This document shows positions 6,851 through 52,900 of a stretch of 64,000 nucleotides of DNA, piece after piece. Origin of the DNA: Dipteris shenzhenensis (lineage: Eukaryota); the NCBI GenBank assembly GCA_047967505.1, contig CM106538.1, one strand, 5' to 3'. The notes under the pieces are model-generated. The model was not told the DNA's origin. It saw only the letters and a program-made list of their open reading frames with translations, and searched no databases. The first letter of the stretch is position 1, and each line of letters begins with the position of its first letter. A program made the translations under genes and the position numbers.

Positions 6851-8369
6851 CTCCTCCTTGCAGCCATTTGCTTCTGTTTTTGCCTCCTCCATAGCCAGCC
6901 GCCTCTTCATTCCTTGCTGTTTTCGTAGCCACCTTCATTTAAGCCCTCTTGGAGCTGTAACTAGGCTCTTGGCAGCCTCCCTGCTAGCTGGTCGGCAACT
7001 CCTGCAAGGCGCACCTGCCCAAGTGGTTCAACAAAGCTGTTTTGGAGGTTTTCATCGCCAAGAACAGCCTTTCCATTGCTGCTGCAGCAGAGCCGACCAC
7101 CTGCGCACATTCTTGGCAGAAGTTCGAGGTCTTTGAAGGCTTTTTTGAGCTATTCTGAGGTTGCTGCTGCAATTCCGACCTGTTTCTGAGGCTGTTGCTG
7201 CATAGCGGCCCCTAACAAAGCAATTTCGAGACTGATTCTTGGATTCCAGCTCATCTACAGCTGCGATTTTTCATTGTAGTGGCCTGCTACAACATTCGGA
7301 GCTGTTGCAGGGAGCCGCCTTTCACTTCAAAGACCTGCTGTTGCATTTTGGTACCCCACACACTTGCTACAGCACCTCAGTGTACCTTGGAGCTGTTTTG
7401 CTGAGCAGCTTCACAAATTTCGAGGCATAAATCGTTGAAGACAGAGCTGGCAATGACTGTAATGCATAGGGCCGTGTGTCGCGCAATTGGTTACACACAC
7501 ATTAGCAATCTTTGGCTAATCAGTCCATACTTCAATGGAGGTAATATTCATGACATGCTCATGAGCCTACCTTTCATGTATCATGATTATCCGAACTGGG
7601 CAAGGCAAGGCAACCCCTGCAAACAACCTCGCAATGCATGGCATGATACACGGAGTCAGATGCGAGGCTGCTCTCAGATTCGGGTTCACATTTGGAGCAT
7701 CTCAAGGCATTTATATCTGTTCTTTTGCACACAAGGAGATTGCTCTTAAAGACCATGACCAGCCTATTTATTTGCTGGTTCTTCATCTTAGCTTGCTGCC
7801 CGCCTTCACACAAATTTTTGCCATCATGACTTCGTTGTCTTCTACTTCCTTGCTCGTGGAGAAGTTTAAGGGGGAGGGTTTTCCCACATGGCAAACCAAA
7901 ATGCAGCTGCTCCTTATGAGTGAAGGAGTTTGGGAGGATGTTGAGGATGACCAGATTGAGCTACTTGATCAACAACACCAAAGGATAGCATAATGCTAAG
8001 GCCATTGCCGTCATTGGTCTTTGCGTAGCCGACTCTCACATCCATCATGTGGATTTCAAGTCGACAGCTAAGCAGATTTGGAGTCGGCTCGAGACCTTGT
8101 TTGGTAATAAAATCACCAACTCTAAAGTCTTTCTAAAGCTCAAGTTTTATGATCTTAAAACGGAAGAGAGTGATGAGTTGAGTGATGATCTAGCCTGGTT
8201 TCAATCTCTTATTCAACAACTCTCAAGTTTGAAAAGTGTACCTACTGATGAAGATAAGATGGCTATTCTTATGAAGAGTATGCATGGAATTTCTCGCTTT
8301 GAGCACACTCTTTTAAGTCCTTCATCTTGCCACTACCACGTTTGATGATATGGTGGCACTCCTCGTTAA

Positions 8370-11300
8370 GCCCGCCCCTTCCTCTCCCTCTCCTCTCCCT
8401 CTCAGCCCCCTCCCTGCCCCTCCCTGCCCCTCCCTCTCCCTCTCCTCTCCCTCTCAGCCTGCCGCAGCCTCCTCTCAGCCCGCCCCCTTCCTGCCCCTCA
8501 GCCCGCCCCCTTCCTGCCTCTCCTTCCTCTCCCTCTCCTCTCCCTAGCCTGCCCCCTCCTTCCCTCTCAGCCTGCCCCCTCCCCTTCAGCCTCTCCCCTT
8601 TACCCCTCCCCTCCTCGCCCCTTCCCCCGCTCCCTCCTCGCCCCTTCCCTGTTTTCTACCCCCTATCTCCCGCAGCATTTTTTGGAGCGGAAGGAGCCTC
8701 CAAATTGTCAGAGTCGGCCTCCTCACCTCGATTGGCGATGGATACTCCGTCAGCCAATCCTACTCCACCTCCACCAACTATTACCTTTTCTAAAGACGAG
8801 TTGCAGCAGCTCAAGAAGGATGTAGAGATTGAATGCTCTACCACGTTGCTAGCACGCATCTTCAGGTCTCACCCCTCCAGATCCCAAGCCAGAGACTGGA
8901 TGCTTGCGGCTCTCCCCCCAAACCTCACTCCACGATTGTTAGATGTTCGTCTTCTGGGACGAGGTTTTTTCCAGGTTGTTTTTGACACTCCAGAGGCTGC
9001 GAGCACTGTGCTCAAAGCTGAGTTTTTACACCTAGGACACAGGAAGATCTTCTTTGAAGCCTTTCATATTGGTTTCGACCCAGTGGAGGCAGATAAGGAA
9101 ATCTTTTCGCTCTTTATCAGATTTCCCAGGCTTCCCCAGGTTTAACATCGACTTCTTTCTGTTATTGGGGAGCATTTTGGCGCAGTTGCTGAGATCCCAC
9201 CCCTCCCTAGGTTGCCATTGACTACAGCAGAGGCAACCAAGGCTGATGGGGTACCTAGAGTTAGGGTCCTCTGTAAGGATCCTAACCTCCAGCGCCCGGA
9301 TGGTTCCTTTTTTCGCCAGAGAGTAGAGATTTCAGGTAGATAGGACCAATGCAGGATATGCAGGACTATTGGACACTTTGCCATGGATTGCCCTAGGAAG
9401 AAGAAAAGGCCCAAGAAGCCCTCTGGTACAGCTACCACCCCATGGCCTCGACAGGGGGGACAGGGGGATGGTACAGGTCCAGCACTTGCTCCTCGGCCTC
9501 GACAGAGGGGTGGTACAGGTCCAGCACCTGCTCCTCGACCTTCGCATGGCGGTCCTCCTCAGGATGGTGGTGATATAGGTCCAGCACCTGCTCATCGGCC
9601 TCGACAGGGGAGTGGTACAGGTCCATCACCTGCTCCTCGACCCCCACATACCTCAGGGGCACGCGATGCTCTCCAGTGGGTTCCGGCACGTGTGCAGATC
9701 CCTCCTTCAGTTCACGAGGGTACATTAGTGGACTCTGCTTCACCTCGAGCTGTCTCTCCAGTCTCACCTCACACAGTCCGAGACACTGAAGCTTCGACCT
9801 CCTCCCCGGTTGCAGCTTTCTCCCTAGATCCAGCAGTGCCAAACGCTCTTCTTGAGGCAGTAGAGGTCTCCGCGGCTGGGCAGACACAGGATAGAGAGCA
9901 GGCCTCACTTCCTCCCTTGGATAGGGGGAAGGGGATGGTTTACACTATTGATCCTCTTCCCTCGGAAGGGATCCTTCGCACTCCGGTGTCTGGCTTGCTT
10001 CACAGGAACTCGTTTTCAGCCTTGGCAGATGGTTCAGATTTCCCAGAGGAGGAGTTTGTGCCCACTACTTTTGGGGAGCCAGTGATTGGGTTTCATGTTG
10101 ACAGGGCTTCTTCTTCAGGTGGCAGGGTTCTTTCCCCTGTTGATTTTCCGCCACTTGGTTCCATCCCTCCCTCCTCGAGCAGGAGGTCTTTCCCTGTTGA
10201 GGGGTTTGTTTCCGCCACTAGGTCGGGCAAGGTGTTCCAGTCTACATCCTCCCGTCGATGAGGATTATTAGTTGGAACATAGAGGGCCTAGGTGGTGTCC
10301 CACATCGCCGCCGTAGACAGCTGATCCGGGATCAGCTTCATCCAGGTGTTACTGGGGGTTCCATTGATATCTTATTTATTCAAGAGCACAAACTGGATTC
10401 TAGAGAGTGTGCCAAGTCATGCAAGTTGCTTTCTGGCCATACTTTTTGGTCGCCTGCCTTGGGCACCAAGGGGGGCACTTCTATTTCAGTTTCGTAGTCG
10501 GTTCTCCCCTTAGTTGTTGGACACGGAGTCATTATTCCCTCTAGAGCTTAGTGGATTATTCTTTTGATTGGAGGGCGTAAGGTTGGTTTCCTTAACCTGT
10601 ATGCCTCCAACATTAGAGGGGAACGTGTCCTTATGTGGAAGAATTTGCTCTCCTGGGCTCCCATTGTGGATTCATGGGTGATTGGAGGTGACTTTAACAT
10701 GGTCGAGTTACCGTCAAACAAAAAAGGAGGTAGAGAAGGCGGACTTCACTCTTTGGAGAGAGCAGCTTGGGATGCCTTCCTTTTTCACTTCTGTGGCAGA
10801 GATACTTGGTGGGATGATGCCTTTCTTATTCAGCCACAGTCTCTCCTGTTCTCTTCGTCGAACAGGAGGCAGCAGATGCCTATTTATGCACGCATTGACA
10901 AGTTCTATGTAGATGATTGGGCACTAGACAGAGGTGGATCGGTATGCATTGCTGCTGGGGTTTCCACTTCAGACCACTTTCCTATTGTGCTGGCTATCTC
11001 AGAGCCTCACTTGAGAGGACGGTCTGTCAGCATCAGGATTCCAGATGCCTTTTACACAGAGAAGGACCTTACAGAGGCAGCCTGCAGATATGGGTTTCTC
11101 ATGTCCAGGGTGGGCAGCCATATCCATCACATGTAGCCGCTGCCCTTTCTGGTATTAGCAACTTCTACCGCTCAGTTGCTTGTACCAGGAGACGAGATAT
11201 TCTCAGACGTGAGATTGGTGTTCGCCAGCAGTTGGCAGCTTTGCAGAGGGAAGAGCAGAAACGGCCTTCAGATGCTTGGATTCAGGAGCGTCTTGCTGCA

Positions 11301-14959: not shown

Positions 14960-17900
14960 GGTGTGTGTGAGAGAGAGAGACGAGAGGGTTTGTCCGCCTG
15001 CTGTACAGCCTCCCCAGGATCCCGTACAGGATCGCGACCTGTCCGTACAGACATACGGATGCCGTACGACCACTGCACAGCCGTACGATTACTCCGTCCC
15101 CTCCCTACGCAGCAGTCCTCAGTATCTCCGCCCCTTTTCCATCGTCACTTCCGCACCTTTTCTGAAACTTCCTTTGTATGTCCGTACCCTCCAGTCCCCT
15201 TCCGTACAGCCTAGCATTCCTGCCCACTTTTCCCTTCTCGTACAGTTTCTGCTCGCCCCCACAGCATCCCCGTACCGTTTAGCCTGTTCCGTACACCTGC
15301 ACGATCCGTACAGTACGTACAGACCGTACAATATGTACTCTTACCCTCTACTTTGTCCGTACTCTCTGCCCGTACAAACCCCACCGTACAGCTCTGTTTT
15401 TTCTGCAATTCCATTAATCTTGCCTTGCTCCCCTCCATGGAAGACCAGCTTAAAAGCTACTCCCGCAAGGACTCGACCCGGGACTCTAAAAGACAGCAGG
15501 TTGATTTCTCTTTTGCAGCCTCCGTGGACGCTCACTATGTCTTCGACATGCTTAAAGATGAATTTCATCACAGTCGAAAGGAGTGGGCCAAACCTCCCCC
15601 TGCTCTCAAATATAAGTTAAAGCTGCCCTCCTTGGTCGCTCCTCTTCGAAAGTTCTCTCAACAAGCAGTTATCATTTTCTTCCCAGGAAAGTTACCGTCA
15701 ACAAATGATGTGGCTCAATGGGTTCAGGCTTTGTTGGGAGATTGCTTTGTTGAAGGTGTATACTTTGCCTCTCGAGGTTTTTATGAAGTGCACTTCTCGG
15801 ATGCCTCATATCGTCAGCAGATATTGGAGATGTCACCTCTTTTCTATGGCAGACAAATGGTGCATGTCATGCCATGGTCGCCAAATAAGGATTATCACAG
15901 TCTCATTCGACATCACTGCCCTGTATGGGTTGAGGTAGTGGATTTTCCGGATTATATGAGGGCTGAGTTACCAAGTTTAGCAGCTACTTTGGGGCAAGTT
16001 GTATGCCCACCCCGTCCTTCGTGCAATCGAAATCGGTTTTGTATTCTTTGGGATACAGATCACCCGACCCCTCCTTCCATTGCGGTAGAAGTGGAGGATG
16101 TTCCCCTGGGTGAAAAATATTTTGACTTGAAATGGGGAGTATTTGCAGGTGCTTGTTTTACATGTCATAAGTTTGGCCACCTGGCCTCACAGTGTCCGGC
16201 AGTCCTGCATCAGCTCCCACCCACAGCCATTGCTCCAGAAAATACCTCCCCCCCCACTTATGGCCCGGGGCCTAAGGCTATGCCAACCAAGCTGGGTGAT
16301 GTGGCATCTAAATCAGTCCCTCCCAAAGAAAATGTGGTTCAGGTTTCAGCCAAGCAAAAGATAAAGGAAAAGGCAAAATTTCAGAATCTCTTGCCTCCTC
16401 CCAGGGTGCCTGGCAGCAACCCAAAAAGGTATTTGCGCTCAAACCACGACCGTTACAATCTCGTCATTGGGATGCCTCAACTTCCACCCCCGGTCAGACC
16501 TCTACCCCAGCTGATAGCCTCGCTTCTCAACTGTGGGTTGATGTGTTAAAGAGGGGCATCCCTGTATGTGACAATGATGAGGATTCTAGAGCCAATGATC
16601 CAGGAGGCCAGGTGGATGTTGACGTCATGGCTGAGGCCTGACAGCTTATACCTCTGCTATGCTTTTTGGTTTGACTGTACATATCTCTCATGTCAACTTC
16701 AATTACTTGCATTACATACAATGTTCAAGGTCTTTGCAATGTCAATAAGTGGAGACTTTTCTGGCATTATGTACATAGAATGCACCCCGATGTAATTTCT
16801 TTACAGGAACACAACCAACACTTCTTGGCTGGCCAGCAAGGTCACTATGCTGGGTATGACATCTTTTATGCTGGTACAATGCACTTTTCGGGAGTCTGCA
16901 TGTTGGTGAAACATGATATGCAGCCCATGGTTGCTTACAATGACCCCCAGGGTCGATGGATGGTGATCAAATGCACTTGTCATGCTGATCTCTATGAAAT
17001 AGCATCTGTCTATGCCTCTCAAACTTCAGCGACAAGAGCTCGAATGTGGGCCTCCCTCAAACAATATCCATGGCTGTCTAATGCCTTTTTGTGTGGAGAC
17101 TTTAATAACTCGCCTGCCACTCAAGACAATACCACTCATTGTTCTCATATGATCCCCACTGAGCTTCAACATTGGGAAGATATGCTTTCTTTCTTGCATG
17201 CAGAAGATCTATGGCTCTCAACAAGGGACAGAGATACGGGTTATACATACCATCACAATGCCCTTACTCATTACTGGGCTCGACTTGACAGATGGTATTT
17301 GTTGCATGCTCAGCAGTATGCCAGTTTTACATGTGCATTATGGGTTGATCATTCCCTCTTGCTATCTGATCACTTCCCAGTATGCTTGACTTTATCTATG
17401 GCACGTTTGACAGATGATATGCCTTTTTTTGGTCGTCGCCTACTTCATGTTAATAGTGCTTATCTACTTCATCAACAATTTCAAAACATGGTGAAAGTGG
17501 CTGTCCGCCCCCTCCTCTCACATGCTCAGGAGGACATGGATTTTGCTTGGATCAGTCTTGCTCATCGCTTGCAGGCTGTTATTCAAGACTATGGACGGAG
17601 TTACATGGGAGACCTCAGGCTCAAGCTGAAATGGGCTCAATCTCACAAGCAACAAATGGATATAATCAGCTCTTATAGGCAGCTCACCTCCTCTGAACAG
17701 GATTCTTGTGCTTATGCGGCTCACATCATCCATCAAAATGATCTTCGTAAATTAAAGAAGTGGCAAATCCGAGCTCGCATGAAACCCCTTTTGGACAAGG
17801 GCTGCTCCTCCAAAGCCTTCTTTAAAAGCCTACATGCAGACAGGCGAAAGGAGGATATTTGCAGGATCAGGAAAGATGATGGCACCTGGACTACCTCCAA

Positions 17901-24630: not shown

Positions 24631-26758
24631 TTTTTTTTTTTTTGTGAGAAGAAATAATTTATTGCTATGAAATAATTACATTCATAGTTACTCCAAAAGC
24701 AGAGTAACTACTACTCAACTGAAATTTTCAGTATAAGCCATATATACATCATGATCGATCAAATGAGTCTTAGAACGATTGCCGCAGAGATCGTTTGAAA
24801 AAAATAGGAAAAGCTGTTGCCGAAGAGGGACTTTATAATGCCAAAGGAGATGCAGCCGCTTTCTCCACCACTTCGATGGGCGATCCATATGCCAAACAAA
24901 ATTGGCTCTGTCAGAAACCCAAGGCGGAGGTAACAACACTTTATACAGAGAAGGCACTGTGATATGTGAGAGCTTCAAAGGACGGGCTGAAGAAGAGGAA
25001 GAATGGAGAGTCCAATCCTCAAGCCTATCCTGAAGTTCCAAACAAGGTACCGGCAAGAAAGGTTGAAGCATTTCTAAAATTTTATGCCATAAAGGATGAT
25101 AATGAGCTCCCAAACCATACTTGCGAGCAGCCGCAGATAAAGATAAAAGAGTGCCATCATTTTAAAGTACATCCGCCACAGAAGAAATACCTTTGAAAGA
25201 TATAAAATAAGAACGCCTAGGTTTTTGTATAGCCAAAGGAGGGTGGAATACTTTGGACCAATAAATATTCTCAGCCCTCAAGGAATTTCCCGACAAAGAA
25301 TCCCTGCCATTCCATTCCAAGTGGGAGAAAATATGCTTCCAATCAAGAAGCAAACGAGAGACAAAAGGGTAGCCTGTGATCTTGCCTTGAATAGAGCCAA
25401 ATAGAAAATCCCACTGTGTAGGCTGCCAATGCCCAAAAGCAGAAGTATCAATATGCAACAAAAGAGAGCGGATCATGAAAGCCCAAGGCTGATCCCCTTG
25501 CATAAACTGCAACATCATTTTCCCCCTGTGAGCAAGTATATGCATTTGAATATTGAGTATGTTCAAACCCTCGTGCATCTTTGGAGAACAGATACGATGC
25601 CTAGAGAGTAATCTGAGACTTTGAACACCAGAAAATCTCCATGATAGTAGACATAAAGGAAACCAGATCTGCCTTAGTAAACATGATGAGGGGTAGATAG
25701 AATTGTATGTATGCTATCAAAATGGATTGCGTTATTCGCAAACGAACATGTAATGGCCAAGTTGCAAGCTTCCAATATTCAAGTTTTGCCCTCAACTTTT
25801 TGAGCACCCACTTAGTTTGTTAAGAATGAGTGAGCCCCCAACCTAGAGGATAGCCAAGATGTCGAATCAATTGAGAAGTTGGAACAATTTCCCCAGGCCA
25901 CAAAAGACTATGCCAGTCTTTAGCATGCAATGGCAATAGCTTGGATTTTCAAAAATTCATATGAAGACCAGCAGCTAAGCCATATGTAGAAAGAGCCTGC
26001 ATAATCAATATATTTTGCATTTTCTATTCCAACATAGGCATTAGCAATGTTGTCTGTGATATGCCTACGAGAAACAAAACCATATTGCGCAAGATGCAAC
26101 CCATCATGCAAATAGCCTTTTATCCGATCAACAATCATTTTGGTAGTAAATTTGTAAATGACTGGCATAAGCATGATAGGTCTCCAATCAGCCAAAGATT
26201 CACAGATTTGCTTTTTGGAAGGAGTTTAACAAGACCTCTCTTCCATGTGTTTGGCATTTTCTAATTTTCTGATTTTCTTCTAGCCACAGCATGGTGTGTA
26301 TGCTCTTGTTGGTGCCACTCTAGGGATTGTATCAATCAGCTTAAGAAGCCCGTACGAAACTTTTTATGGAGTGGTCTAGATGGCACAACTGATGTTACAG
26401 CGAGGGTGGCTTGGGAGACCTTGATTCTTCCTACAAGAGAAGGGGGTTTGAATATCATCGACCCAGATCTACAGTGCAGAGCCCTACTCTGCAAGGTCGT
26501 TGTGAGAGGACTTATGCCAGGGCAAGAGCCTTGGAAGGATTTCTTTATCAGATGCATACAGTCTCGCACGCCCACCTCTGGAGAGGATTAGACACACAGT
26601 ACCAGATGGGTTTTCACCACAGCGCACCTCAGATCTCCCTCTTCCCCTCTTATGGTTGCTATCCTGAAAGCATGGGCTAGCTTCAGGAGTACTCTTCTCA
26701 GGATTCCCCTTCCACCCGTGAAGAGATTGAAAGGCAGCTTGGTAAGCCTTCAGGAAGC

Positions 26759-29700
26759 AAAGTGTTACAATTTTAGTGTGGGACGCTCCTGCGAATGCTC
26801 CCTCCCCTCCCCTGCTCCCGTCTACCCCCCCCTCGCGCTGTGCGGCCCCCTCTCCCCTCCCCCTCCTCTCTCTCCGGCTGCGCCCCTCCGCCCCCCTCTC
26901 TTCCTTCTTCGCCCGCCATCCCCCCCCCCCTCTCCTTCCGTCTCCACCCCTCCGTCCTCTCCCCGCCTCCCCTCCCTCGCGTTGCACTACCACCCCCCCG
27001 CCCCTTCCTCCCCCTCCCCGCTGTTGCGCAACGCTCCCCCCCCCTTTCCCTCCCTCCTCGCCTTTCTTCCCCGCCCCCTCTCGCACTGCGCTGCCACACC
27101 CCCCTCTCCTTCCTCCTCTTCCCCGCCTTGCGCTGCGCTGCCCCCCCCCTCCCTCCTCCTTTCCTTCCCCCTCCGCCATTCGCTCCCTCTCCACCACCTC
27201 TCCTCCCCCCGCTTCCCCGTACTTCTCCATCCCTCCCTCTTTCCTCCCCCGCCTCCGCCCCACTCCCCCCTCCCTCGTCTCTGCCATCTCCTTCCCTGCC
27301 TTTTGGAGCGTTCGCAATTTGTCGGTGCGGTATGGCGGCCGTGAGCCCAGAACCGGTGGCCCAGACGAACCCCCCTTCCATCAGCCTACTACATAACACT
27401 GACAGAGCATCAGGTCTCCTTGGTGAAGCAGGCCGCCACGGACTTCTTCCAGACGTCCGTTTATGGGAGAGTCATTGGCTACGCCCCTTCATGAGCAGAC
27501 ATCAGGGACTGGTTGCAGTCCACCCTCTACCTTGAGGACAGCCACATTGAGGAGGTCGCACTCATGGGACGTGGTATCTTCTGGCTCAAGCTCTCCTCCT
27601 CACAGGCTGCGAGCGATATGGTCAGACGGTCTTCTACTTCTGTGGGTGGGAAGATCATCCTTATGGTCCCATGGTACAGGGGTTTCAGTGTAGCGGACTT
27701 CGATGCCCGCTTCCGCATTCCTCGCCATCCAGCTACCCTCATTTTCCCAAGCCTCGCAATCGAGCTTCGCCCGATCATCAAGGACCTGGGGGCGCACTTT
27801 GGCTGGCTCATGCAGGACACCTTCGTTGATGCGGTGGCAGCCCAAGGGGTGCCACATGTCAAAGTGGCAATCCTAGATCCACAGAGTATCCCCTCGGAGT
27901 TCGAGATTGAGACGGACACAAGTGTGGTGACGCAGCGCATTATGGACACTGGTCGCCCAGACCAGTGTCTGAGATGCCACGGCTTCGGGCACCAGGCGCT
28001 CTCCTACCCTCGCTTTACGAGGACAGATCCTCAGATGGCCCCCATCCAGGCAACTCAGGATCCCCCCCGCCAGGCATCAACACCCCCTCCCGAAGGGGAA
28101 GGCTGGACTGAGGTCAAAAGAAAACGGAAAGGAAACAAAACAGGACCAAAAAAGCCTTCCCATCTACAGCAAGAGACCCCTGTGGTGACCAATCAGCAGT
28201 AGCCCGGCAAGGGGAAGGAGAAAGGGAAGGAGGAGATCAGCCAGCCTCCCCCTCATCCTTCACCCCGCCCCCCCCTCCCCCCTGCTTCTCGGTCCCCCTA
28301 CCTCCCCCCCCTCCAGGATCCCGCCCAGCACCTTTGGTTTCAGCCCCCCTCTCTCCCTCGAGCATAATCCCGAGGGAACCCCCCCTTCCGCCTGCGGCCC
28401 CGAAGCCAGCACAGACCTCCTCCGCGCCTATCCCTCTTGGCGCGGTGGAGGGGAGAGGCCCTTCCCCGCAAATGGCCAGCACTACTCCAGCTTGTTCAAC
28501 AGCCAGCACCCCTCTTTCTGATTCAGACTCCTCATCCTCGTCCCCACACCCAAGGGCAGCTCCTAGAGCTCTACCTTTGGAGTTTTACCGAGCAGGACCT
28601 TGGGATTATTTGGATGCAGCGGGTATTGGCTCCTTCCCTGCATGCCTAGACATCAGCATCTTCTTCCTCCGAAAGGGGGCGGAGGGTAAGCTGTCCGTCC
28701 TTGCCCCCCATGATGGTCCTAGCTATTCCTTCACTATCACCAATGACGGGAATGAGCAATGGACGAATGAAAATGTTTGGGAGACGATTCGAGATCAGTC
28801 CCAGGAGCAGGTGCAGGACTGGATCGGTAGCAGAGCAGCGGAGCTTCTTCAGCAACAGTGGAAGGAGGGTGACGTTCGTCTGAGATGGCGCCACAGCGCC
28901 AAACGATTCCGCCTTTTGGTCATCATTCGACCGCCTCTGGAGTGGATGTACGCAGAAGGGCTGCGCCCGTGGAGGACCTCAGAGGTAGCGGGCTTCTACA
29001 GTATTTCCCTGGCGGAGACTTCGAGTTGGTTAGAGAGAGCTTACCACCATGGGACGAAGGGCCTCTCCCCTCTGTTGAAGGTTTTAGAGGATGGGTCCGA
29101 TGATCCGGCCTCTCCTTCGAAACCCTCACAGAAGCGCCTTCGTCTGCACACTGGACATCCTCCGACCACCTCGACATCGACCGCAAGCAGACAGCTGTTT
29201 GTGGCCCATCTCCCCTCTTCATGAGTATACGCATTATCTCTTGGAACGTCAACGGGTTCCGCTCATCAGGAACCCGCGGCCCCAAGAAGATGGTGCTCAG
29301 ACAGGAGCTCCAGCCAGCCTTGGTGGGAAGGGTAGATGTGCTCCTATTGTAGGAACACAAGCTTTCGGCTTCTCAGACCAGCAAGTGTGGGAAGGTCCTC
29401 ACAGGACGCTCCCACACCTACTGGGAACCTTCGATTGGCGAGCAGGGGAGGAGCGGGGGTGTCTGTACCTCCATCGACGCTTCTCTAGTTCAGCATGTGT
29501 GTGGTTTTGGAACCCTGATCCCAGGGCGAGCGCTTTGGGTGGGCTTGAATATTGAGGGATCCCGCATCGGCATCCTCAATATCTATGCCCCGACCGACCT
29601 TAGATGGAGAGCCGCTTTCTGGAGCTCTTTGACAGACTTATTGCCAGAGATGGATTCTTGGATTGTAGGAGGGGACTTCAATAACCTTGAGACTTTAGAG

Positions 29701-32700
29701 GATCAGCAGGGACGGGGCCCAGAGTTCCTCGGTATAGCTCAGGCGGAGCAGGTAGATTGGGACTCCTTGTTCGCTGTGGGAGGTCGGGACAGCTAGAGGG
29801 AGCCTTCCTTTTGCAAATGGACAGGGAGTCTGAACTTCTCTTGGGGTTACAGGAGGGAGGGAGGCAGACTTCTGGAGCGGTTGGACTGTTTCTATGTCAG
29901 CGATTGGGCGCTAGGCAGAGGTGGAGAGTTACGAGTGGTTCCAAGGACGACCCTCTTTGACCAGCCTTCCTTTTGCAAATGGACAGGGAGTCTGAACTTC
30001 TCTTGGGGTTACAGGAGGGAGGGAGGCAGACTTCTGGAGCGGTCGGACTGTTTCTATGTCAGCGATTGGGCGCTAGGCAGAGGTGGAGAGTTAGGAGTGG
30101 TTCCAGGGACGACCCTCTTTGACCATGCCCCAGTCATCCTAGTCCTGGACTCAGCCTCTCACTCCTTACCTCCACGCTTGTGCCGGATCCTAGACTCCAT
30201 CTACTCCAGAGCAGCGGTTCAAAGCAGGATAGTGGACCTGTGGGAGCAGGATTGGGACCCCATGGGGAATATGGCAGCTCAGGTAGCTCAGGTTCTTGCC
30301 GAGTCTAGTCTCATATGTCAGTAGGAGGCGATTCAAGTCAGGCAGCAGTGGTGGGCGAAGGAGAGGGGTCTCAGATGAGATCTTGCCTCGATACAGGGGA
30401 TGCAGCAGTCTTCTCCAGGCTCTGAGGAGCTCAGACGACAGGAGGTTAGAGCCCGAGCCATGCTAGAGGAGATCACCCAGCGACGCTCAGAGTTCTCGTT
30501 TCATGCTTCCAAGTCCTTTTGGACTAGGAAAGGCGACAGGATGTGCAGAGAGTTCTTAAGGACTCATGGCCAGAGGTCAGCAGGGGAACAGCTCCGATCT
30601 CTTAGAGCGTAGGATGGTAGTGTCAGGACAGATCTAGACGAGGTCCGGGACTTGGCGACAGATTTCTACAGATCCTTGTTCCAGCAAGAGCCCCCAAACC
30701 CTCGTGCCCGCCACTGCAGGGAGGAGGTGTGGAGATATACACCGTCGCTCGTGCAACCTAGCATGAGTGAAACCCTTCTCGCCCCTTTCACCGTGGCAGA
30801 GATGCAGGATGCGATGAGCGCTATTGATGGACAGAAATGCCCAGGTGAGGATGGGCTCCCTAGAGCTTTCTTCACCACCTTTGGGGAGCAGGTCCACCAG
30901 CCCTTGCTCGTAGCCTTCCAGCATATCTTCTCTAGTGGACAGATGCCAGAGAGGCTTGATTTGCCTCATCCCCAAAGGGGGGGACCGTCAGGAGATCAGA
31001 CAGTGGCGCCCTATCACCCTCCTCCCGACTGCCTACAAAATCCTCGCCAAGATGATCAGTAGCCGCATCCGCCCCCTGCTACATGACTTGATCCATGACA
31101 CCCAGACTGGTTTTCTCCAAGATTGCAGCATTTTGGATAACATTTTCACATTCTCAGAGGCGACGGAGTGGGCCCAGCACAGTGGCCAGCACCTTGCCAT
31201 ACTCCTTCTTGACTTTGAGAAGGCGTACGACAAGGTAGACTGGTCCTTCTTGGAAGGTACACTCTCTCGGTTCGGTTTTCCGGACGAGTGGATCAGAGGT
31301 ATTACTAGTCTCTACAGGTCGGCCTCCAACCGGGTTATCATCAGCGGCAGGATGGGGGAGAGATTCACCCTCGAGCGCTCGGTGCGTCAGGGCTGCCCAC
31401 TTGCACCCTACCTCTTCCTATTTTTTGCGGAGGCCATGACTCACTTCCTACGAGTCCGTACCACTGGTCTTCGAGGGATGCGCCTCCCTATTCGGGACGA
31501 TGCAGAACTTTTGGACTCCGAGTATGCAGACGACACGGCCTTGTATGTGCAGGATGATATCGAGTCACTAGAGCGAGTGAGACTGTCTTTAGAGGTTTTT
31601 TGCCTAGCCGCTGGGGCGAAAATCAACTGGCGTAAGTCAGTTGGTTTTCTTACGGATCCGGGAGCCTGCTCACAGTGGGGTATTTTCCTGGGGTCTCGCT
31701 GGATCCCTAGAGGACAGACGACACGTTACTTGGGATTCCAGGTAGGTCTGGATATCACGCCGGCTCAGCAGTTCTTACCGGTCCTAGTCTCCATACGACG
31801 GAAGCTAGCCTTTTGGAGCACGGCTCGGCTATCTTTGGCAGGCAAGGCCCTTGTGGTCAACCAGGTCCTTCTTGCCACCGCTTGGTACGTGGCATCTTGC
31901 TGGTGTTTCTCGAGATTGTGTGTAGCCTAGCTGAGGAGACTGGTGCGGAACTTTCTTTGGTCTGGCTCAGATGGTTCCGGCACCACCAGAGCCCGGGTCG
32001 CCTGGCAGACGGTCATTCTCCCCCATACAGAGGGCGGTCTTGGCATCATAGATCCAGAACTGCAGAGTCAGGCATTACTTGGCAAGTTAGTCATCCGCGG
32101 TCTGACCCCAGGAGGGCAGACGTGGAAGCTCTTGCTTCAGCATGGTCTCAGCGCGTGTACCTCCCAAAGAGGGGGTGATTGGCAGCCGTCTATCCGGTGG
32201 ATTTTCACTTCTGCCCCACTGACTCAGCCCCGTTCTCCCTTCCTCCGTAGCCTCGTCTCGGTCTAGAGGAAGCTGCAGCACAGCCTCTCTCAGGTTCCCC
32301 CCAGCTGCCGAGAGGAGATAGACAGACAGCCCCTAATCTAGAGCAGCCAGGTGACTGATGATACATGTCGCTTTGGGCGCGTGGGCCTGCGCGCTCGCTC
32401 CGGGTTTGGAGGGACGTCTATAGCCAGTTGAGCCCAGGCGAGCTGGCAGCAGCAGTAGGTACGGCACGTGGGATCCAGATGCGACGAGCGGAGATTGATG
32501 CTGCCATCCCTGCAGGTTGGAGGATTCCCATGATCACCAGACAGCTCCTCCTGGGAGATGAGAGGTGGCTAGGGCAGTTCACACCCCGTGGCATTTCTTT
32601 GGTGGTTGCAGGCCTTTTCTCGGACTCCTCGATTCACTTCTTCTCCGTCGCTGATGATAGCCGTCACCAGAGCAGAGAGGCCGTGATCGAACCCCAGCTT

Positions 32701-33845
32701 CACTGGCAGCGCCTTCGCATCATAGGGCTGCAAGGGAAAACGTGGCATATAGATCCCCTGATTATGCAGGACCGGGACTAGAGACTCTGGATTTGGGAGG
32801 GCCGCTCCTTGATAGAGGTGGAGTGGGACCCAGGGGAGTGGCGCTGGCCACCACTGGAGACCTCAGAGAACCCTACCCCCTTCTTCTCATACAGTGCGCG
32901 TATTGGTAGGCGTGCTCTTGGGGCTCTCCAGCACAGGCTACCCACACAGGCACATAGTTGGTATGCCCAAGGGATATCTCTGGTTTTTCTTCGTACATTC
33001 TGGAAGACTCTTTGGGCAAGCTGGCGGCCGAGGAAGATCTCTTACTTTCTTTGGATGGTGGCCCACAAGGGGCTACCAGTTGGCAGCTGGCTGAGGTAGA
33101 TGGGGCAGGAGGGGCACTGCCAGATGTGTTTTCAGGAGAAGTCCCTGAAGCACTGCCTCTGGAGTTGCTCGCATGCTCAGACAGTGTGGAGAGTCATGGG
33201 GATCTTAGCGAGGGCTGCACCCGAGCTAGGACCGGTCACTTGGGGAGCCGTTTGCTGGTGCAGCACCGAGATGGGACATCACTTGGCTTATGAGTTCTGT
33301 AGGCAGGATCCAGTTTTCTTCATCACGCAGGCCACCTGGGCATACATGGACAGCTTCCCTTGGCATCTGACAGAGACAGATGCAGGAGCGATGACTCAGC
33401 ACCCAGTTTGGGAGATCATAGGGAGTATTGTAGGCTGGCATATCTGGACTTTCAGATGCGCGCAAACCTTAGGAGATCAGGCTTCTTCTGCTACCCAAAC
33501 CCTAGCGGACATTTGGAGCACGATCATTCACACGCTCAAGGGTCAGTGGGATCAGATTTAGGGGGAGTCCCGGGCAGGGAAGGAGAAGAGACGGCGCTTC
33601 CTTCGGGACTGGGACCATCGAGAGCTGTTCTTCCAGCACTCTGCTCAGAGTCTTCTGTGGCATTACTCCCCCCCACCGTGGCTGTTTGTCCACACTCCGA
33701 TGATTATGCCCTGAGAGGCTTGTAATTAGTATTTTGTTACCACGGGATGTATCCGTTTTGTGATTGCAGCCCGCTGGCCTTTAGGCCCTCTTGTATTCTC
33801 GTTTTCAAGCAATATAAGTAGCACTACTTTTTGCGCAAAAAAAAA
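26759..33845 (+). mobile_element. L1 #4 (family C), full length with 15-bp TSD
   Basis: TSD AAGCCTTCAGGAAGC at 26744-26758 and 33846-33860. C-rich 5' UTR; ORF1 ~27332-29224; ORF2 29221-33714 (APE, RT with EYADDT, Zn finger); poly(A). Confidence 0.96.
29801..30124 (+). repeat. 162-bp in-frame tandem duplication in the L1 #4 endonuclease
   Basis: Units 29801-29962 and 29963-30124. Single copy in L1 #5. Confidence 0.92.
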
Positions 33846-35404
33846 AAGCCTTCAGGAAGCTTCCTGCAGATCAACAGGCCCAATTGGTTCTTAATCTCAG
33901 AGGGAGTGCAGGGAGAGTCCAACAGATTGATGCAGCCTTGCCCTTGGATTGGGTGGACACAGATGATATGCCTATTACTTGCTCCACCTGGATGGGGGTT
34001 TTTCTAGATTAGGCTGTCCAAATCCACAGATGATATCTTGTTGGAGGTACCGTTTCAGCCAGTCAAGATAGTGGGCTTCATGGAGCATGGCTCTCTCTCA
34101 CATTGGTACTTGGATCTTGACCCGCTTCTCATCGCCCTGGGCTCATGGAGGCTGTGGCTCTATGGAGGTGTCCCAATTAAGTTTTTGTAGTGGGACCCTG
34201 GGGAATGGGAATGGATAGAGGAAGGGCACGGAGAGAAGGGCATGCCCTTCTTTCGTTACACGGTCAATAATGCCAGGAAATTCCAGCTCAGCTATAGGGG
34301 TTAGAGGCCTACCAGAGCTCATCATTGGGAGAACTTTCAGATTTTTGCTGACTTGCAGAAATTTTTTTGGCAAAGGCTCTGGAAATCCCACCGGAATAGA
34401 AAAATCACTCTTCTTTTGGCTTTCTATTCATGGTGGGATAGCAGTGAAATAATGGAGATCTAGGTTTGGAGTTGATCCTTCTTGCCCTCATTGCCTTTCT
34501 GCTTTGGAGACAATACAGCACTGCCTTTGGGATTGCAGACAGGCGAGAATCATATGGAAGGGTATTGCAAGACTTTTCAGCACTTTTGTTCGCCTACCCT
34601 TCTTCATGACCTGGGGATTAGTGGCTTGGCTCACTCTTTCAGGGCCCTAGGTCTTCTTTGAGAGACTTGACTCCTCTTAGGCTCTTCACATCCGACGACA
34701 TCTTGTGGAGTCGTGCTCTCTAGAGGATGTTCCGGCCACTCTCTTCAGAGCTGCTCATTCCTCGGTTGACTCTCCATGGGAGATCTTAGCTAGCATTGCA
34801 GCATGGCACATTTGGAGAGCAAGATGCACTGAGGTTGTGGAGGGTTCTCAGGTTCACCCTTCTCATATCTTGGCCAGTACTTGGACAGATACGGTACTCA
34901 CTCTGATGGCCATTTGGGCGACCATGCAAGGATCATCTCAAGCAACCTCCTCCAGGAGAGTTACTTTTCTCAGAGATTGGAGAGACTCTCCCTTCTTTGC
35001 TGAGACTTCTACAGGGTTGACTTGGCATTTTCAGCCTCAGCCTTGGTTTCTTTCTACCTCATTCCTCTGAGGTGTTTTCATTACATGCTTAGCATGTTGT
35101 ATTTCCGCACAGAGCTTGCTCTAGCGAGTTTCTTTCTTAATAGAAGTCTCCTTTTTGTCAAAAAAAAAAAAAAAGAATTCACCATATGCAGCAAAGTATG
35201 CTTCAAAAGAGGCCAACATTCTTAAAAAAACTCAACTGTAAGACCATCCCATCTTGGAGATTTCCATTTACCACAAGATTGGATTGCATCTGACAATTCC
35301 CTTCTAGTAAAAGGTTCCTCCAATTCCAAAGCTTGAGTAGTGGAGATAATAGGAGAAACATGCTGTAAAAGTAAATTTCTTGCAGACAAAACCTGCTGTG
35401 AGGG

Positions 35405-38400
35405 AAGATCCCACCTCACCTCACCCCCCCGCCTCGCTCCGCTCCGCTCACCTCACCTCCCCCTCTCTTTCTCCTCCTTTTTCCCCCGCTTCCCCATTCC
35501 TCCCCCCTTCCTTTTCCTTCCCCTTCCCCACCTCAGGAGTTCGTAGTTAGTCAAGCGATATGGCGGCTACGTGCCCGGAACTGGCACATTGACAGAGCAC
35601 CAGGTCTCCTTGGTGAAGCAGGCCGCCACAGGCTTCTCCCAGACATCAGTTTATGGGAGGGTCATTGGCTACTCCCCTTCACGAGCAGACATCAGGGACT
35701 GGTTGCAGTCCACCCTCTACCTCGAGGACAGTCACATTGAGGAGGTTGCACTCATGGGACGTGGCATTTTCTAGCTTAAGCTCTCCTCAGCACAGGCTGC
35801 GAGCGACATGGTTAGGCGATCCCCTACTTCTGTGGGTGGGAAGATCATCCTCATGGTCCCTTGGTACAGGGGATTCAGTGTAGCGGACTTCGATGCCTGC
35901 TTTCGTATTCCTCGACACCCAGTTACCCTTATCTTCCCAGGTTCCGCAACCGAGCTTCGCCCGATCATCAAGGACCTGGGGGCGCACTTTGGTTGGCCTA
36001 TGCAGGACACCTACATTGATGCGGCGGCAGCCCAAGGGGTGCCACGTGTCAAAGTGGCAGTCCTTGATCCACAGAGCATCCCCTCGGAGTTCGAGATAGA
36101 GATAGACACAGGTGTGGTGACGCAGCGCATTCTGGTCACTGGTCGCCCAAACTAGTGTCTGAGATGCCACAGCTTCGAGCACCAGGCTCGCTCATGTCCT
36201 CGCTTCACGGGTACAGAACCTCAGAAGCCCCCCGTTCAGGCAGCTCAGGATACTCCGCTCCAGTCAGCGACATCCCCTCCCGAAGGGGAAGGCTGGACGG
36301 AAGTCAAACGAAAACGGAAGGGCAACAAAGCAGGCCCCAAAAACCTTCCCAGCCACAGCAAGAGCCCCCTCAGATGATCCCTACTCATCAGCAGCCCTGT
36401 AAGGGGAAGGAGAAGGGGAAGGAGGTGGTCAGCCAGCCTCCCCCTCATCCCTCATCCCGCCCTCCTCCCCCTCCCCCCTCCTCGTGGGACTACTTGGATG
36501 CAGCGGGTATTGGCTCCTTTCCCGCATGCCTAGACATCAGCATCTTCTTCCTCCGCAAGGGGACGGAGGGTAAGGTGTCCATTCTGGCTCCGCACGATGG
36601 TCCTAGCTATTCCTTCACTATCTCCAGTGAAGGGAATGAGCAATGGACGAATGAAAATGTTTGGGAGACGATACGAGACCAAACCCAGGAGCAGGTGCAA
36701 GACTGGATTGGTAGCAGAGCAGCGGAGCTTCTTCAGCAGCAGTGGCAGGAGGGTGATGTTCGTCTGCGTTGGCGCCACAGCGCCAAACGTTTTCGACTCC
36801 TGGTCATTATTAGACCACCGCTGGAGTGGGCCTACGCGGAAGGGCTTCGCCCCTGGAGGACTTCAGAGGTTGCGGGCTTCTACAGCATTTCCTTGGCAGA
36901 GGCGTCGAGCTGGTTAGAGAGAGCTTACCACCACGGGACGAAGGGCCTTTCCTTTCTGCTGAAGGTTTTAGAGGATGCGTCCGATGATCCGACCTCTCCT
37001 TCGAAACCTTCACAGAAGCGCCTTCGTCTCCACACAGGACATCCTACGACCACTTCGACTTCGACCGCAAGCAGACAGCTATTTGTGGCCCACCTTCCCT
37101 CCTCATGAGTTTACGCATTATCTCTTGGAACGTTAACGGGTTCCACTCATCAGGCACCCGTGGCCCCAGGAAGATGGTGCTCAGACAGGAGCTCCAGCCA
37201 GCTTTGGTGGGAAAGGTAGATGTGCTCCTACTACAAGAACACAAGCTTTCGGCTTCACAGACCAGTATTTGTGGGAAGGTCCTCACAGGACGCTCCCACA
37301 CCTACTGGGAACCTTCGATTGGCGAGCAGGGGAGAAGCGGGGGTGTCTGTACCTCCATCGACGCTTCTCTAGTTCAGCATGTGTTTGGTTTTGGCACTTT
37401 GATCCCAGGACGTGCGCTTTGGGTGGGCCTGCATATTGAGGGATCCCGCATTGGCATCCTCAATATCTACGCCCTGACTGATCTCAGATGTAGATCCGTT
37501 TTTTGGAGATCCTTGACAGACCTGTTGCCAGAGATGGACTCTTGGATTGTAGGAGGGGACTTCAACAACCTTGAGACCTTAGAGGATCAGCAGGGACAGG
37601 GCCCAGAGTTCCTCGGTATAGCTCAGGCAAAGCAGGCAGATTGGGACTCCTTCCTCTTTGCAGTGGGAGGTCGGGACAGTTGGAGGGAGCCTTCCTTTCG
37701 CAGATGGCCTGGGAGTCCGGACTTCTCTTGGGGTTACAGGAGGGAGGGAGGCAGACTCCTGGAGCGGCTGGACCGTTTCTATGTTAGTGATTGGGCGCTT
37801 GGCAGAGGAGGAGAGTTAGGAGTGGTTCTAGGGACGATACTTTCAGACCATGCCCCAGTCATCCTAGTCCTGGACTCGGCCTCTCAGTCCTCACCTCCAC
37901 GTTCATGCCGGATCCCAGATTCCATCTACACCAGAGCAGCGGTTCACAGCAGGATAGTGGACCTTTGGGAGCAGGAGTGGGACCCTACTAGGGATATGGC
38001 AGCACAGGTAGCTCAGGCGCTTGCTGAGTCTAGCCGCATTTGCCAGCAAGAGGCAATTCAGGTCAGACAGCGGTGTTGGGCGCGAGAGAGGGGTCTCAGA
38101 CGTGATCTCGCCTCGATTCAGAGGATGCAGCAGTCTTCTCCAGGCTCTGAGGAGCTCAGACAGCAGGAGGTTCGGGCCCGAGCCATGCTAGAGGAGATCA
38201 CCCAGCGTCGCTCAGAGTTTTCATTTCATGCTTCCAAGTCCTTCTGGGCTAGGAAAGGCGACAGGATGTGCAGAGAGTTCTTCAGGACTCATGGATAGAG
38301 GTCAGCAGGGGAACAGCTCCGTTCTCTTAGGGCGCAAGATGGTAGTGTCAGGACAGATCCAGATGAGGTCCGGGCCTTGGCGACAGATTTCTATAGATCA

Positions 38401-50611: not shown

Positions 50612-52900
50612 CGCCTGCCTCCTCCTCCCTACCCCTTCGTTCACCTTCACCCCCGCTTTTTTCCCTCTTTTCTTCGTGCCGCCTCTTCCCATCTTGTAGG
50701 TTGCTTCAACTTGTTTCCTTGTAGCTTGTTAACAGGTCACAATTGGACTAGGAGAGTGTTTTTGGTTGTTTGTGCTGGTTCTTGGGAGGTTCTTAGCTCT
50801 CTTGTAGCTCATTTCTGCGCTCGTGCTTGGCTCGTGGAGGTTTGCTAGTTGTCTCTTGGTTCATGAGTGCTTGGTGTAGTTTTTTCTTATTGCTTCTTGT
50901 GTGCATTGCAGCTTTCTTTGTGGCCCAATTCCTTGCTGAGCCTCATCACCTTTTTGTGGCATGTTTTTCTTAGCAATGGCTATAGGCCTTCACCTCAGCC
51001 CTCTACTGGAAGCCTTTTTGGCTCGCTTGGTCTCCTTTCCAGTGAGTTTTGCAAGCTTGGAGCTGCCTCTTCTGCCCAATCCCTTGGCTAGTCCCTCTAT
51101 GGGAACATTGGTCCTCTTTCCCATCTTTCTTTCCCTTTTTTCAAACCCCTCCCCTTCTTTTTTCGCGATGCAGAGTTTTATTATTTTCAGCCTCGGAGAA
51201 AAGCTTGGTGGTGACCTTTGTATGGCAAGAAGGGTTAAGAACAAACAAAAGATTAAGAATCCAATTCAACCACTTTAGGATAGAGCCTTGTTGGACAAAG
51301 TTGTTGGACTCACACCTTCAAGGAGCCAGGTGTAGGATTGGATCCAGGCAAGCTTAGCAATAGATGGGGAAAATATTCAAGAGGCCATTACCTACAGGAG
51401 GGGAATCTTCATTCTCTAGTTGAACTCCCCTAACATCACCCTGGCCCTAGTGGAGCAAAGTCCCATTTTCTTTGGCCTGCACCTTGTTTATTTCATCCCT
51501 TGGTACCATGGGTTCACAATTGATTACATGGACGCAACAAATCATGGGCCTCATTTTTCGTGACACTCTGCTTCCTAGGGCTTTTGAGGGAGTACCGACC
51601 CATTCTTCCCTCCATTGGGGGAGCTTTTAGAAGAGGGCTAGAACCTTTACCAGCCTCAATCATAGCAAATGATGGGATCCCTCGACTTAGTTCATTATAG
51701 AGTGTCCTGAGACCCTTTTGGAGGAGATCTTCCTTGAGACGCTTGACAGAAAAGAATTCAAACAGAGGATTGAGGTTTCTAGTTTACCAAATTAGTGCCT
51801 GTGTTTTCAAATAGATGAGTCACTTGGCACTTCCTTGTCCCAAGGGGCAATGTTGGGCTCCCTCTTCTACACGATCTCGTTAGGGGAAGCAGAGGCAGTT
51901 TCGTGCCAACAGATCCTATTGTCCATCCAGGCAGCAACAAGAGTCCTAGACCCCCTGGATGGAGCCTTTAAAGGGGGTTTCAACTAGGGTGGAGAGAAAG
52001 AAGCCTGACCGCAAGAGGGCCGCAAAGAACTGCAAAGGGAGTAGGCGAGTGGATCCCACTCGAGATGTCCACGAAATCTTGACGGTGAGATATTCTTTGA
52101 TCTCCTGATAGAGGAACGGCCTAGAGTACTTAGGCTTCTGCTCGCACGCCTGAACTCTCTCTACCGTTGCAATCAATGTCACCACCCACCCTCCCTCTTG
52201 CTAGCAATTCCTCCTGTTTGATCCTCCCGCCCTTCCTCCCCAAAGCCCCAATGTCCTCCCATTCCTAAGCCTTCGGGGAAAGGCAAGGCTAGGACTTCTT
52301 CCTTTCAATCTCAGGCTTCCTCCACTCAATCCTAGTCCCCAGCACAAGATGAGGCTAATTGCACTTTTTCTCAACTTCTAGGTCCGATCCCTTGTCCAAG
52401 TTAGCCCCTCTTGAGCAAGTTCTAGAGCCTTGAACCTTGGAACTACCGTGAGATCCCAAAGGATTACCCCCATGCCTTGAAGGTGACAGTTCTAATCCTG
52501 TAGCCCTACAAGGGGGGTTCCCCGGGGCAATTCATACCTCCTCTCATCTTGTTTGGGGTTTCAACTGTGCTTCTATGAGAGAGAAGTGGACCTCGGTGCA
52601 TTTTTATCTCATGATGAGGGACCAAATATTCCATACGTGGAGTGACTGGGAGCCCAAGGTAGGGAGTGTGGATTCCCCCAAACAGACAGGGACTCAGTCT
52701 GGTAATAGGTGTGCTCCAAGTGGGGCCAGAGGTTAAGCTTACACAAGTTACACACTGGATGCTACAATAGTATGCTATCTAGCTTGGGATAGAGCTTCAT
52801 GTTACATTGGGCCTAGAAGGTAGGCATTAAGATTGCCCTGCGCATCGTCACACGAACGATGACTAGTCTTCCAAATGCCCGTCAAAATCACAGACATCCG
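50612..52900 (+). mobile_element. Highly degenerate L1 5' UTR plus ORF1 (family C-like)
   Basis: C-rich start, then remnants GRGIFF, IPWYHGF, DGIPRL, and SCLGVSTVLL...LSHDEGP resembling the family-C ORF1 extension. Confidence 0.6.

Follow-up and report, generated by a model that had tools for sequence, protein, structure and literature searches.

A candidate C-terminal accessory domain in the ORF1 protein of one plant L1-type retrotransposon family

The 64,000-nucleotide stretch of contig CM106538.1 analyzed here (the 64-kb window; Dipteris shenzhenensis, assembly GCA_047967505.1) contains several long interspersed nuclear elements (LINEs), two of which, copy 4 and copy 5 (L1 #4 and L1 #5), are members of one L1-type family, here called family C. 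Between the CCHC zinc knuckle of the first open reading frame (ORF1) and the start of the second (ORF2), both copies encode a domain of ~185 predicted folded residues followed by a short basic tail. On balance, we favor the view that this stretch encodes a genuine accessory domain at the C-terminus of ORF1 in this one plant L1-type family, and that it acts as a non-enzymatic module in the assembly of the ribonucleoprotein (RNP). The two copies are organized as follows; dN/dS denotes the ratio of nonsynonymous to synonymous substitution rates and pI the isoelectric point.

27393..28202, + strand: copy 4, ORF1 N-terminal region, related to the DUF4283-type ORF1 that other LINEs of the window encode; interrupted by stops at 27492 and 28200
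27966-28007, + strand: copy 4, decayed CCHC knuckle, last cysteine replaced by tyrosine
28203..28561, + strand: copy 4, Pro-rich linker, inside which the coding frame switches
28562..29116, + strand: copy 4, new domain, predicted folded part (~185 residues)
29117..29221, + strand: copy 4, conserved basic tail SPSKPSQKRLRLH...TSTASRQLF (35 residues), pI 12, predicted disordered, dN/dS 0.03
29221..29224, + strand: copy 4, ATGA stop/start overlap; stop of the domain frame at 29222-29224, ORF2 start codon at 29221-29223
29221..33561, + strand: copy 4, ORF2 (endonuclease and reverse transcriptase), with several stops and frame changes
35583..36377, + strand: copy 5, ORF1 N-terminal region; interrupted by stops at 35772 and 36153, with an intact CCHC pattern at 36156-36197
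36479..37105, + strand: copy 5, new domain and tail; stop at 37106-37108 overlapping the ORF2 ATG at 37105

ORF2 of family C encodes an apurinic-type (APE) endonuclease at its N-terminus (Exo_endo_phos, E 8.3e-12, 45.7 bits against a cut-off of 24.5; copy 5, 37105-38298) and a reverse transcriptase (RVT_1, E 5.9e-34; copy 4, 30914-31930), the combination that marks an L1-type LINE, that is, an APE-type non-long-terminal-repeat retrotransposon. Pfam returned no direct DUF4283 or RRM match for the family C ORF1. The N-terminal part of ORF1 in copy 4 is related by tblastn to the ORF1 of family A (28% over 233 residues, E 8e-14) and of family B (E 1.7e-4); the family B ORF1 matches DUF4283 above the cut-off (E 1.7e-7), the family A ORF1 below it. 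The copy 5 knuckle, CLRCHSFEHQARSC, has the pattern C-X2-C-X4-H-X4-C, and Pfam zf-CCHC gave no match at E <= 1 for the N-terminal part of ORF1 in copy 4, a scan that the copy 5 knuckle stretch (36156-36377) lay outside.

The domain is read in + strand frame 2, which is free of stops from 28112 to 29224 (370 codons) and which contains, from 28601, the residues quoted in an earlier note on this DNA. That note had recognized ~165 extra residues at the end of ORF1; the extra domain is real, but its extent had been set too short, as the conserved unit starts at the motif RALPLEFY (28565) and ends at the stop codon 29222-29224, with the 35-residue basic tail included. Copy 5 has neither the RALPLEFY start motif nor the long linker, and 308 Pro-rich bases of copy 4 (28290-28597 in the alignment) are missing from it.

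The stop codon of the domain frame overlaps the ORF2 start codon as ATGA in copy 4 (29221-29224) and in copy 5 (37105-37108), and the same overlap ends ORF1 in the unrelated family A (10258-10261); therefore, the frame of the domain is the frame that ends ORF1. The overlap may be a translational coupling device common to several L1 families of this genome. Family B has a spacer of ~140 bases instead, with the ORF1 stop at 16547-16549 and the first methionine of ORF2 near 16690. The domain thus forms the C-terminal end of ORF1, as had been proposed, but ORF1 does not run into it without interruption in either copy. In copy 4, the domain lies downstream of the 308 additional Pro-rich bases and in a different frame from the knuckle, and in copy 5 the switch falls in an A-run near 36344 whose length differs by one base from that in copy 4. 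The domain frame is stop-free in both copies; the remainder of ORF1 has two stops in each. On the 3' side of the A-run, the domain frame of copy 5 and the knuckle frame of copy 4 read the same linker peptide, KGKEKGKE..SQPPPHPS. Therefore, in the ancestral element, ORF1 most likely continued unbroken into the domain.

Comparison of the two copies shows that the domain is a translated sequence under strong purifying selection. The proteins are 93.2% identical over 207 residues (copy 5, 36485-37105) and the DNA is identical at 554 of 621 bases, with the 67 differences distributed over codon positions 1, 2 and 3 as 16, 4 and 47, in agreement with the earlier report of a nearly identical, stop-free second copy rich in third-position differences. 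Over the 207 codons, dN is 0.037 and dS is 0.453, which gives a dN/dS of 0.083 (Fisher p 3e-21), and the other two frames of the same stretch give values above 1. The earlier note had proposed this ratio as a check on function, with a value near 1 speaking against it; the ratio obtained indicates that the domain is selectively maintained. Elsewhere in the element, dN/dS is 0.03 in the 35-codon tail, 0.23 in the N-terminal part of ORF1 and 0.14 in the first 130 codons of ORF2. The domain is the most constrained part of ORF1, and most of the divergence between copies 4 and 5 therefore arose in active lineages under selection at the protein level.

Relatives of the domain were found as short fragments. 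An index of 5.8 billion proteins yielded seven with a single-sequence query and 23 with a profile; among 1711 candidates for longer relatives in that index, none reached E <= 0.001. An exhaustive scan of 1.84 billion representatives returned 30 matches, 21 of which are fragments (55-173 residues) of the same domain, with identities down to ~35-50%. These retain the core motifs and the tail: the start LPLEFY..WDYLD, many tryptophans, the HGTKG motif and SPSKPSQKRLRLH..TSTASRQLF. In six fragments, as in copy 4, the LPLEFY..WDYLD start follows a Pro-rich stretch. One fragment, P0004, opens with MSIRIIS, the first residues of ORF2, fused directly to the start of the domain, an arrangement that points to a rearranged copy elsewhere. 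The other nine matches are proteins of 483-5142 residues that match query residues 13-77 repeatedly; in the four of these long repeat proteins that were examined, each stretch scores 3.4-10.5 bits on a YSFLVTNDGN-like motif, and we judged all nine to be a chance motif match multiplied by repeats. No host relative of the domain was found among the 1.84 billion representatives, and the earlier description of the module as captured is for that reason unsupported.

The domain is also a constant feature of the family in public sequencing data. We mapped the contig coverage of 27400-29400 in four runs (X1, X2, X4 and X6). In the DNA run X2, 8259 contigs fall on this interval and cover the N-terminal part of ORF1 and 28539-29400, hardly touching the linker; in all four runs the linker (28137-28538) is nearly uncovered and both of its flanks are covered, which we read as variability between copies. 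The domain is present wherever reads of family C cover this part of the element. Since contigs cover the domain through to ORF2 and leave the linker bare, the domain is constant in an abundant family and the linker is variable. Twenty of the 24 listed runs contain 5-20% of the sampled words, including air and plant metagenomes; with coverage mapped in four runs, we draw no conclusion on habitat or host range from this distribution.

Among the families in the window, only family C has a folded C-terminal extension of ORF1. When run at E <= 10 against all six reading frames of the window, a profile of the family C domain finds copies 4 and 5 only, consistent with the earlier statement that families A and B lack the domain. 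The family A ORF1 (9344-10261) continues after its knuckle into a 290-residue extension made up of Ser-rich sequence and Gly/Pro-rich repeats, so that family C is not alone here in having a long C-terminal extension of ORF1. The family A extension shows no similarity to the domain, the observed scores being reached by 129 of 500 and 327 of 500 shuffles. A diverged trace had additionally been proposed at ~52540-52860. The claim is not supported: the profile of the domain family finds nothing there, and tblastn against a 3-kb sub-region returns no more than two short matches, one of 23 residues at 52581-52649 (E 0.09) and one of 18 residues at 52500-52553 (E 2.2).

Judged by sequence comparison, the domain belongs to no described sequence family. 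Pfam returned nothing above its cut-offs, whether queried with the window proteins or with 29 members of the family, searches of the PDB by sequence and by profile returned nothing below E 0.07, and the ESM Atlas gave no usable match. Transposase_22, the Pfam family of the Type II ORF1 protein, does not match the 370-residue frame, the 235-residue N-terminal part of ORF1 or the 29 members at E <= 1. Two weak candidates were set aside: Phage_P2_GpE, which matches 14-20 residues of the predicted hairpin in four of the 29 members (best E 0.004, below the cut-off) and was rejected as chance, and DUF7507 (E 0.1), a chance motif match multiplied by repeats. Full-text searches of the open literature, a scope that leaves aside subscription journals and the supplementary domain tables (S10/S11) of PMC5203782, returned no description of this domain or of a Nudix domain in a LINE ORF1. 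Within these limits, we regard the domain as new, in a protein of a known kind.

Two AlphaFold2 models, built from alignments of 29 and 31 sequences, have mean predicted local distance difference test scores (pLDDT) of 63.0 and 63.5 and predicted template modeling scores (pTM) of 0.44 and 0.46. Both place the same elements in the same order: a long, a short and a third strand, helices of 20 and 13 residues, two further strands, and a helix-turn-helix-like hairpin (SEVAGFYSISLAETSSWLERAY, from 28979); the conserved HGTKG motif lies at 29048-29062 and the tail is disordered. The models were compared exhaustively with 48,161 PDB representatives, of which we considered the best 50 rows per model, spanning residues 23-129 or 9-117 and treating rows within 1 Z as ties. 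The C-terminal domain of MUTYH, which has the Nudix fold, ranks first for both models. Rows titled Nudix number 6 and 13, or ~15 and ~25 of 50 when proteins that we assign to the Nudix fold without such a title are added, and most of the remaining rows are beta-grasp domains. No Type II ORF1 structure appears among the best 50 rows of either search, which excludes nothing. All scores fall under the noise level of the tool, at which the best Z of unrelated models is typically 7-8. We concluded that the prediction, although tentative, is robust for an alpha/beta core, which would be beta-grasp-like.

A Nudix-like fold, the idea put forward in the earlier note, is neither refuted nor established by these results. 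The structural check suggested there places Nudix proteins first in Foldseek (E 0.17 and 0.023), but with TM-scores of 0.2-0.36 and a pLDDT of ~63 it yields no confident fold. As the note had observed, the Nudix box GX5EX7REUXEEXGU is not kept. In its only plausible register, over 16 sequences, the first glycine is invariant, the glutamate at position 7 is D/N/Y/G and the R-E pair is mostly R/K-E/D; five of the nine positions (U, E, E, G and U) are lost, being occupied by Q/W/H, variable residues, E/A/D/S, V/I/M/L and Q/C/H. The two catalytic glutamate positions are variable, with Q/H/K/R and E/A/D/S, and from this alignment an active Nudix hydrolase is excluded. The alpha/beta part could nevertheless be a true Nudix fold by descent, degenerate and non-catalytic, which would be predicted to bind a nucleotide, a cap or an RNA or DNA end; the C-terminal domain of MUTYH and CPSF5 are non-catalytic Nudix folds that bind nucleic acids. 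Such an origin is possible but, in our estimation, unlikely. It is consistent with the share of Nudix-fold rows, with the greater length over which these align (81-102 residues, against 62-79 for beta-grasp rows), with the seven of 50 listed weak rows that carry the Nudix name in a viral fold search, with the invariant glycine and the R-E pair, and with the position of the sole local profile-profile alignment, which falls on the box helix. That same alignment, obtained with hhalign against 14 Nudix domains of E. coli K-12, has a probability of 0.5% (P 0.12, 29 columns) and a register one residue off the manual one, and none of the 29 family members matches Pfam NUDIX (PF00293) at E <= 1. The lost box positions, the TM-scores, the sub-noise Z values with beta-grasp domains among the ties, and models of moderate confidence argue against it as well. 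More doubtful is the fuller proposal in which a dead Nudix fold, the helix-turn-helix-like hairpin and a nuclear-import-like tail were recruited by the Gag-like ORF1 of a LINE as a predicted reader of nucleotides, caps or RNA ends; in that case, the Nudix part would let the element recognize or protect its own transcript.

Alternatively, the functional core could be the hairpin, acting as a helix-turn-helix that binds target-site DNA or structured RNA. By eye, EVAGFYSISLAETSSWLERAY resembles helix-turn-helix motifs of the transposase type, one fragment has a weak Pfam match to DUF1153 (E 0.1), and the hairpin blocks reach pLDDT 82 and 81 in model 1, alongside the central helices (79-85). We find this improbable: there is no significant family match, the fold-search rows barely reach the hairpin, the region is acidic (pI 5.1), and the equally conserved alpha/beta part would be left unexplained. 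It is about as improbable, or slightly more so, that the domain constitutes a third, independent reading frame, situated between the two ORFs and no part of the ORF1 protein. Domain and knuckle do lie in different frames in both copies, yet the frame changes differ in place and kind between the copies, the linker peptide is shared between the domain frame of one and the knuckle frame of the other, and the domain is not preceded by a conserved start codon (from the knuckle to WDYLD, copy 5 contains none). Finally, only the absence of a known family would suggest that the stretch is open by chance, or that it is a host-gene fragment carried as a passenger without a role in the element; with dN/dS at 0.083 in frame and above 1 off frame, conservation across diverged subfamilies, and no host relative in the library scan, this explanation is hardly credible.

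Comparison with described systems sets the domain apart from each of them in some respect. Plant L1 ORF1 proteins consist of DUF4283/RRM and zf-CCHC, with other domains in some species, according to the portion of PMC5203782 covered here, which also quotes the scheme of Khazina and Weichenrieder (2009) for the Type I class (RRM-like/DUF4283 plus CCHC). Family C resembles this class in an N-terminal half related to the ORF1 of the other LINEs here, in its C-X2-C-X4-H-X4-C knuckle and in the APE endonuclease and reverse transcriptase of ORF2, and differs in the ~185 predicted folded residues and basic tail that follow the knuckle, none of which is listed in that portion of PMC5203782. We rate the family C protein as a Type I-like LINE ORF1 to which an undescribed C-terminal domain has been added. 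The nearest analogue of this domain, in position and presumed role, would be the C-terminal domain of the mammalian-type ORF1 (Type II, Transposase_22), likewise a small folded domain downstream of the RNA-binding part; the family C domain, in contrast, follows the knuckle and a long linker and not the RRM directly, and its globular part is acidic. The best structural matches, weak as they are, are the MUTYH C-terminal domain (PDB 7efa_B and 1x51) and the RNA-decapping Nudix enzyme X29 (PDB 1u20), which share with the models three strands, a helix, further strands, a C-terminal helix and a glycine opening the loop before the long helix; the family C domain departs from them in lacking the Nudix box and any sequence or profile signal, in its additional second helix and in its sub-noise scores. 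Beta-grasp proteins (ubiquitin-like, PB1 and staphylococcal SSL/Eap domains) tie with the Nudix rows (Z 4-5.3) over a predicted strand-strand-helix-strand-strand core, but they align over 62-79 residues and leave the third strand, the second helix and the helical hairpin unaccounted for. A precedent for modular domain gain is the acquisition of PHD finger and esterase domains by the ORF1 of animal CR1/L2 LINEs, as given in the portion of PMC4120745 covered here, although the domains, the LINE superfamily and the hosts are different.

We return to the reading that we favor, an accessory domain that assists RNP assembly. The ancestral ORF1 would have begun with a DUF4283/RRM-like part and continued through a CCHC knuckle and a variable, Pro-rich basic linker to the domain and the basic tail. 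In ORF1 proteins of this type, the elements known to bind RNA are the RRM-like part, the knuckle and the basic linker, all of which lie upstream of the domain. The folded part, predicted to be a beta-grasp/Nudix-like alpha/beta structure with a helical hairpin, could act by associating with itself, by contacting a host factor or the ORF2 protein, or by binding a nucleotide or the end of an RNA, and would thereby replace the coiled coil and C-terminal domain of the mammalian-type protein. It has a pI of 5.2 and nine tryptophans in 169 residues; the tail (pI 12), with its KPSQKRLRLH motif, most likely serves as a nuclear import signal or an RNA clamp. A homodimer prediction, run without an alignment, scored 0.00 and is evidence neither way. 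Several observations count against the proposal. Both copies in the window are dead, with no intact ORF1 between them, and the continuity of ORF1 with the domain is deduced from the correspondence of frames in two copies and not from one open frame. Contigs from the RNA library (run X6) cover the region, though such coverage is no proof of transcription. Direct binding of RNA would be unusual for an acidic domain. The confidence of the models is moderate (pLDDT 63, pTM 0.44-0.46), and any statement about the fold is therefore tentative.

Other features of the elements are peripheral to the domain. The endonuclease part of ORF2 in copy 4 contains a tandem duplication of ~162 bases at 29803-30126 (54 residues, PSFCKWTGSLNFSWGYRREGGRLLER...TTLFD twice), which is missing from copy 5 (451 versus 397 residues in the tblastn alignment). 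Upstream of ORF1 in copy 4 (26484-27380) and in family A (8303-8800) lie several hundred bases of C/T-rich low-complexity sequence, G/A-rich on the other strand and open in several frames on both strands with a Pro/Ser-rich or Gly/Arg/Glu-rich reading; these may represent a common type of 5' region or promoter. Directly 5' of copy 5, at 34681-35225, a sequence similar to the C-terminus of a LINE ORF2 (WEILASIAAWHIWRARC...) and the A-run that follows it probably represent the 3' terminus of a further truncated LINE.

Multimerization, nuclear entry and RNA choice are poorly understood for plant L1 ORF1 proteins, because these lack a coiled coil or a C-terminal domain like those of the mammalian protein. 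As the most constrained part of ORF1 in an abundant family, the domain therefore offers a tangible entry point for experimental work on how plant LINEs assemble their RNPs. To our knowledge, Nudix-fold modules have no precedent in the structural proteins of retrotransposons; if the link to Nudix domains is true, it would represent a new use of that fold. The domain could also merit an entry of its own among protein families, from which the annotation of large plant genomes would benefit.

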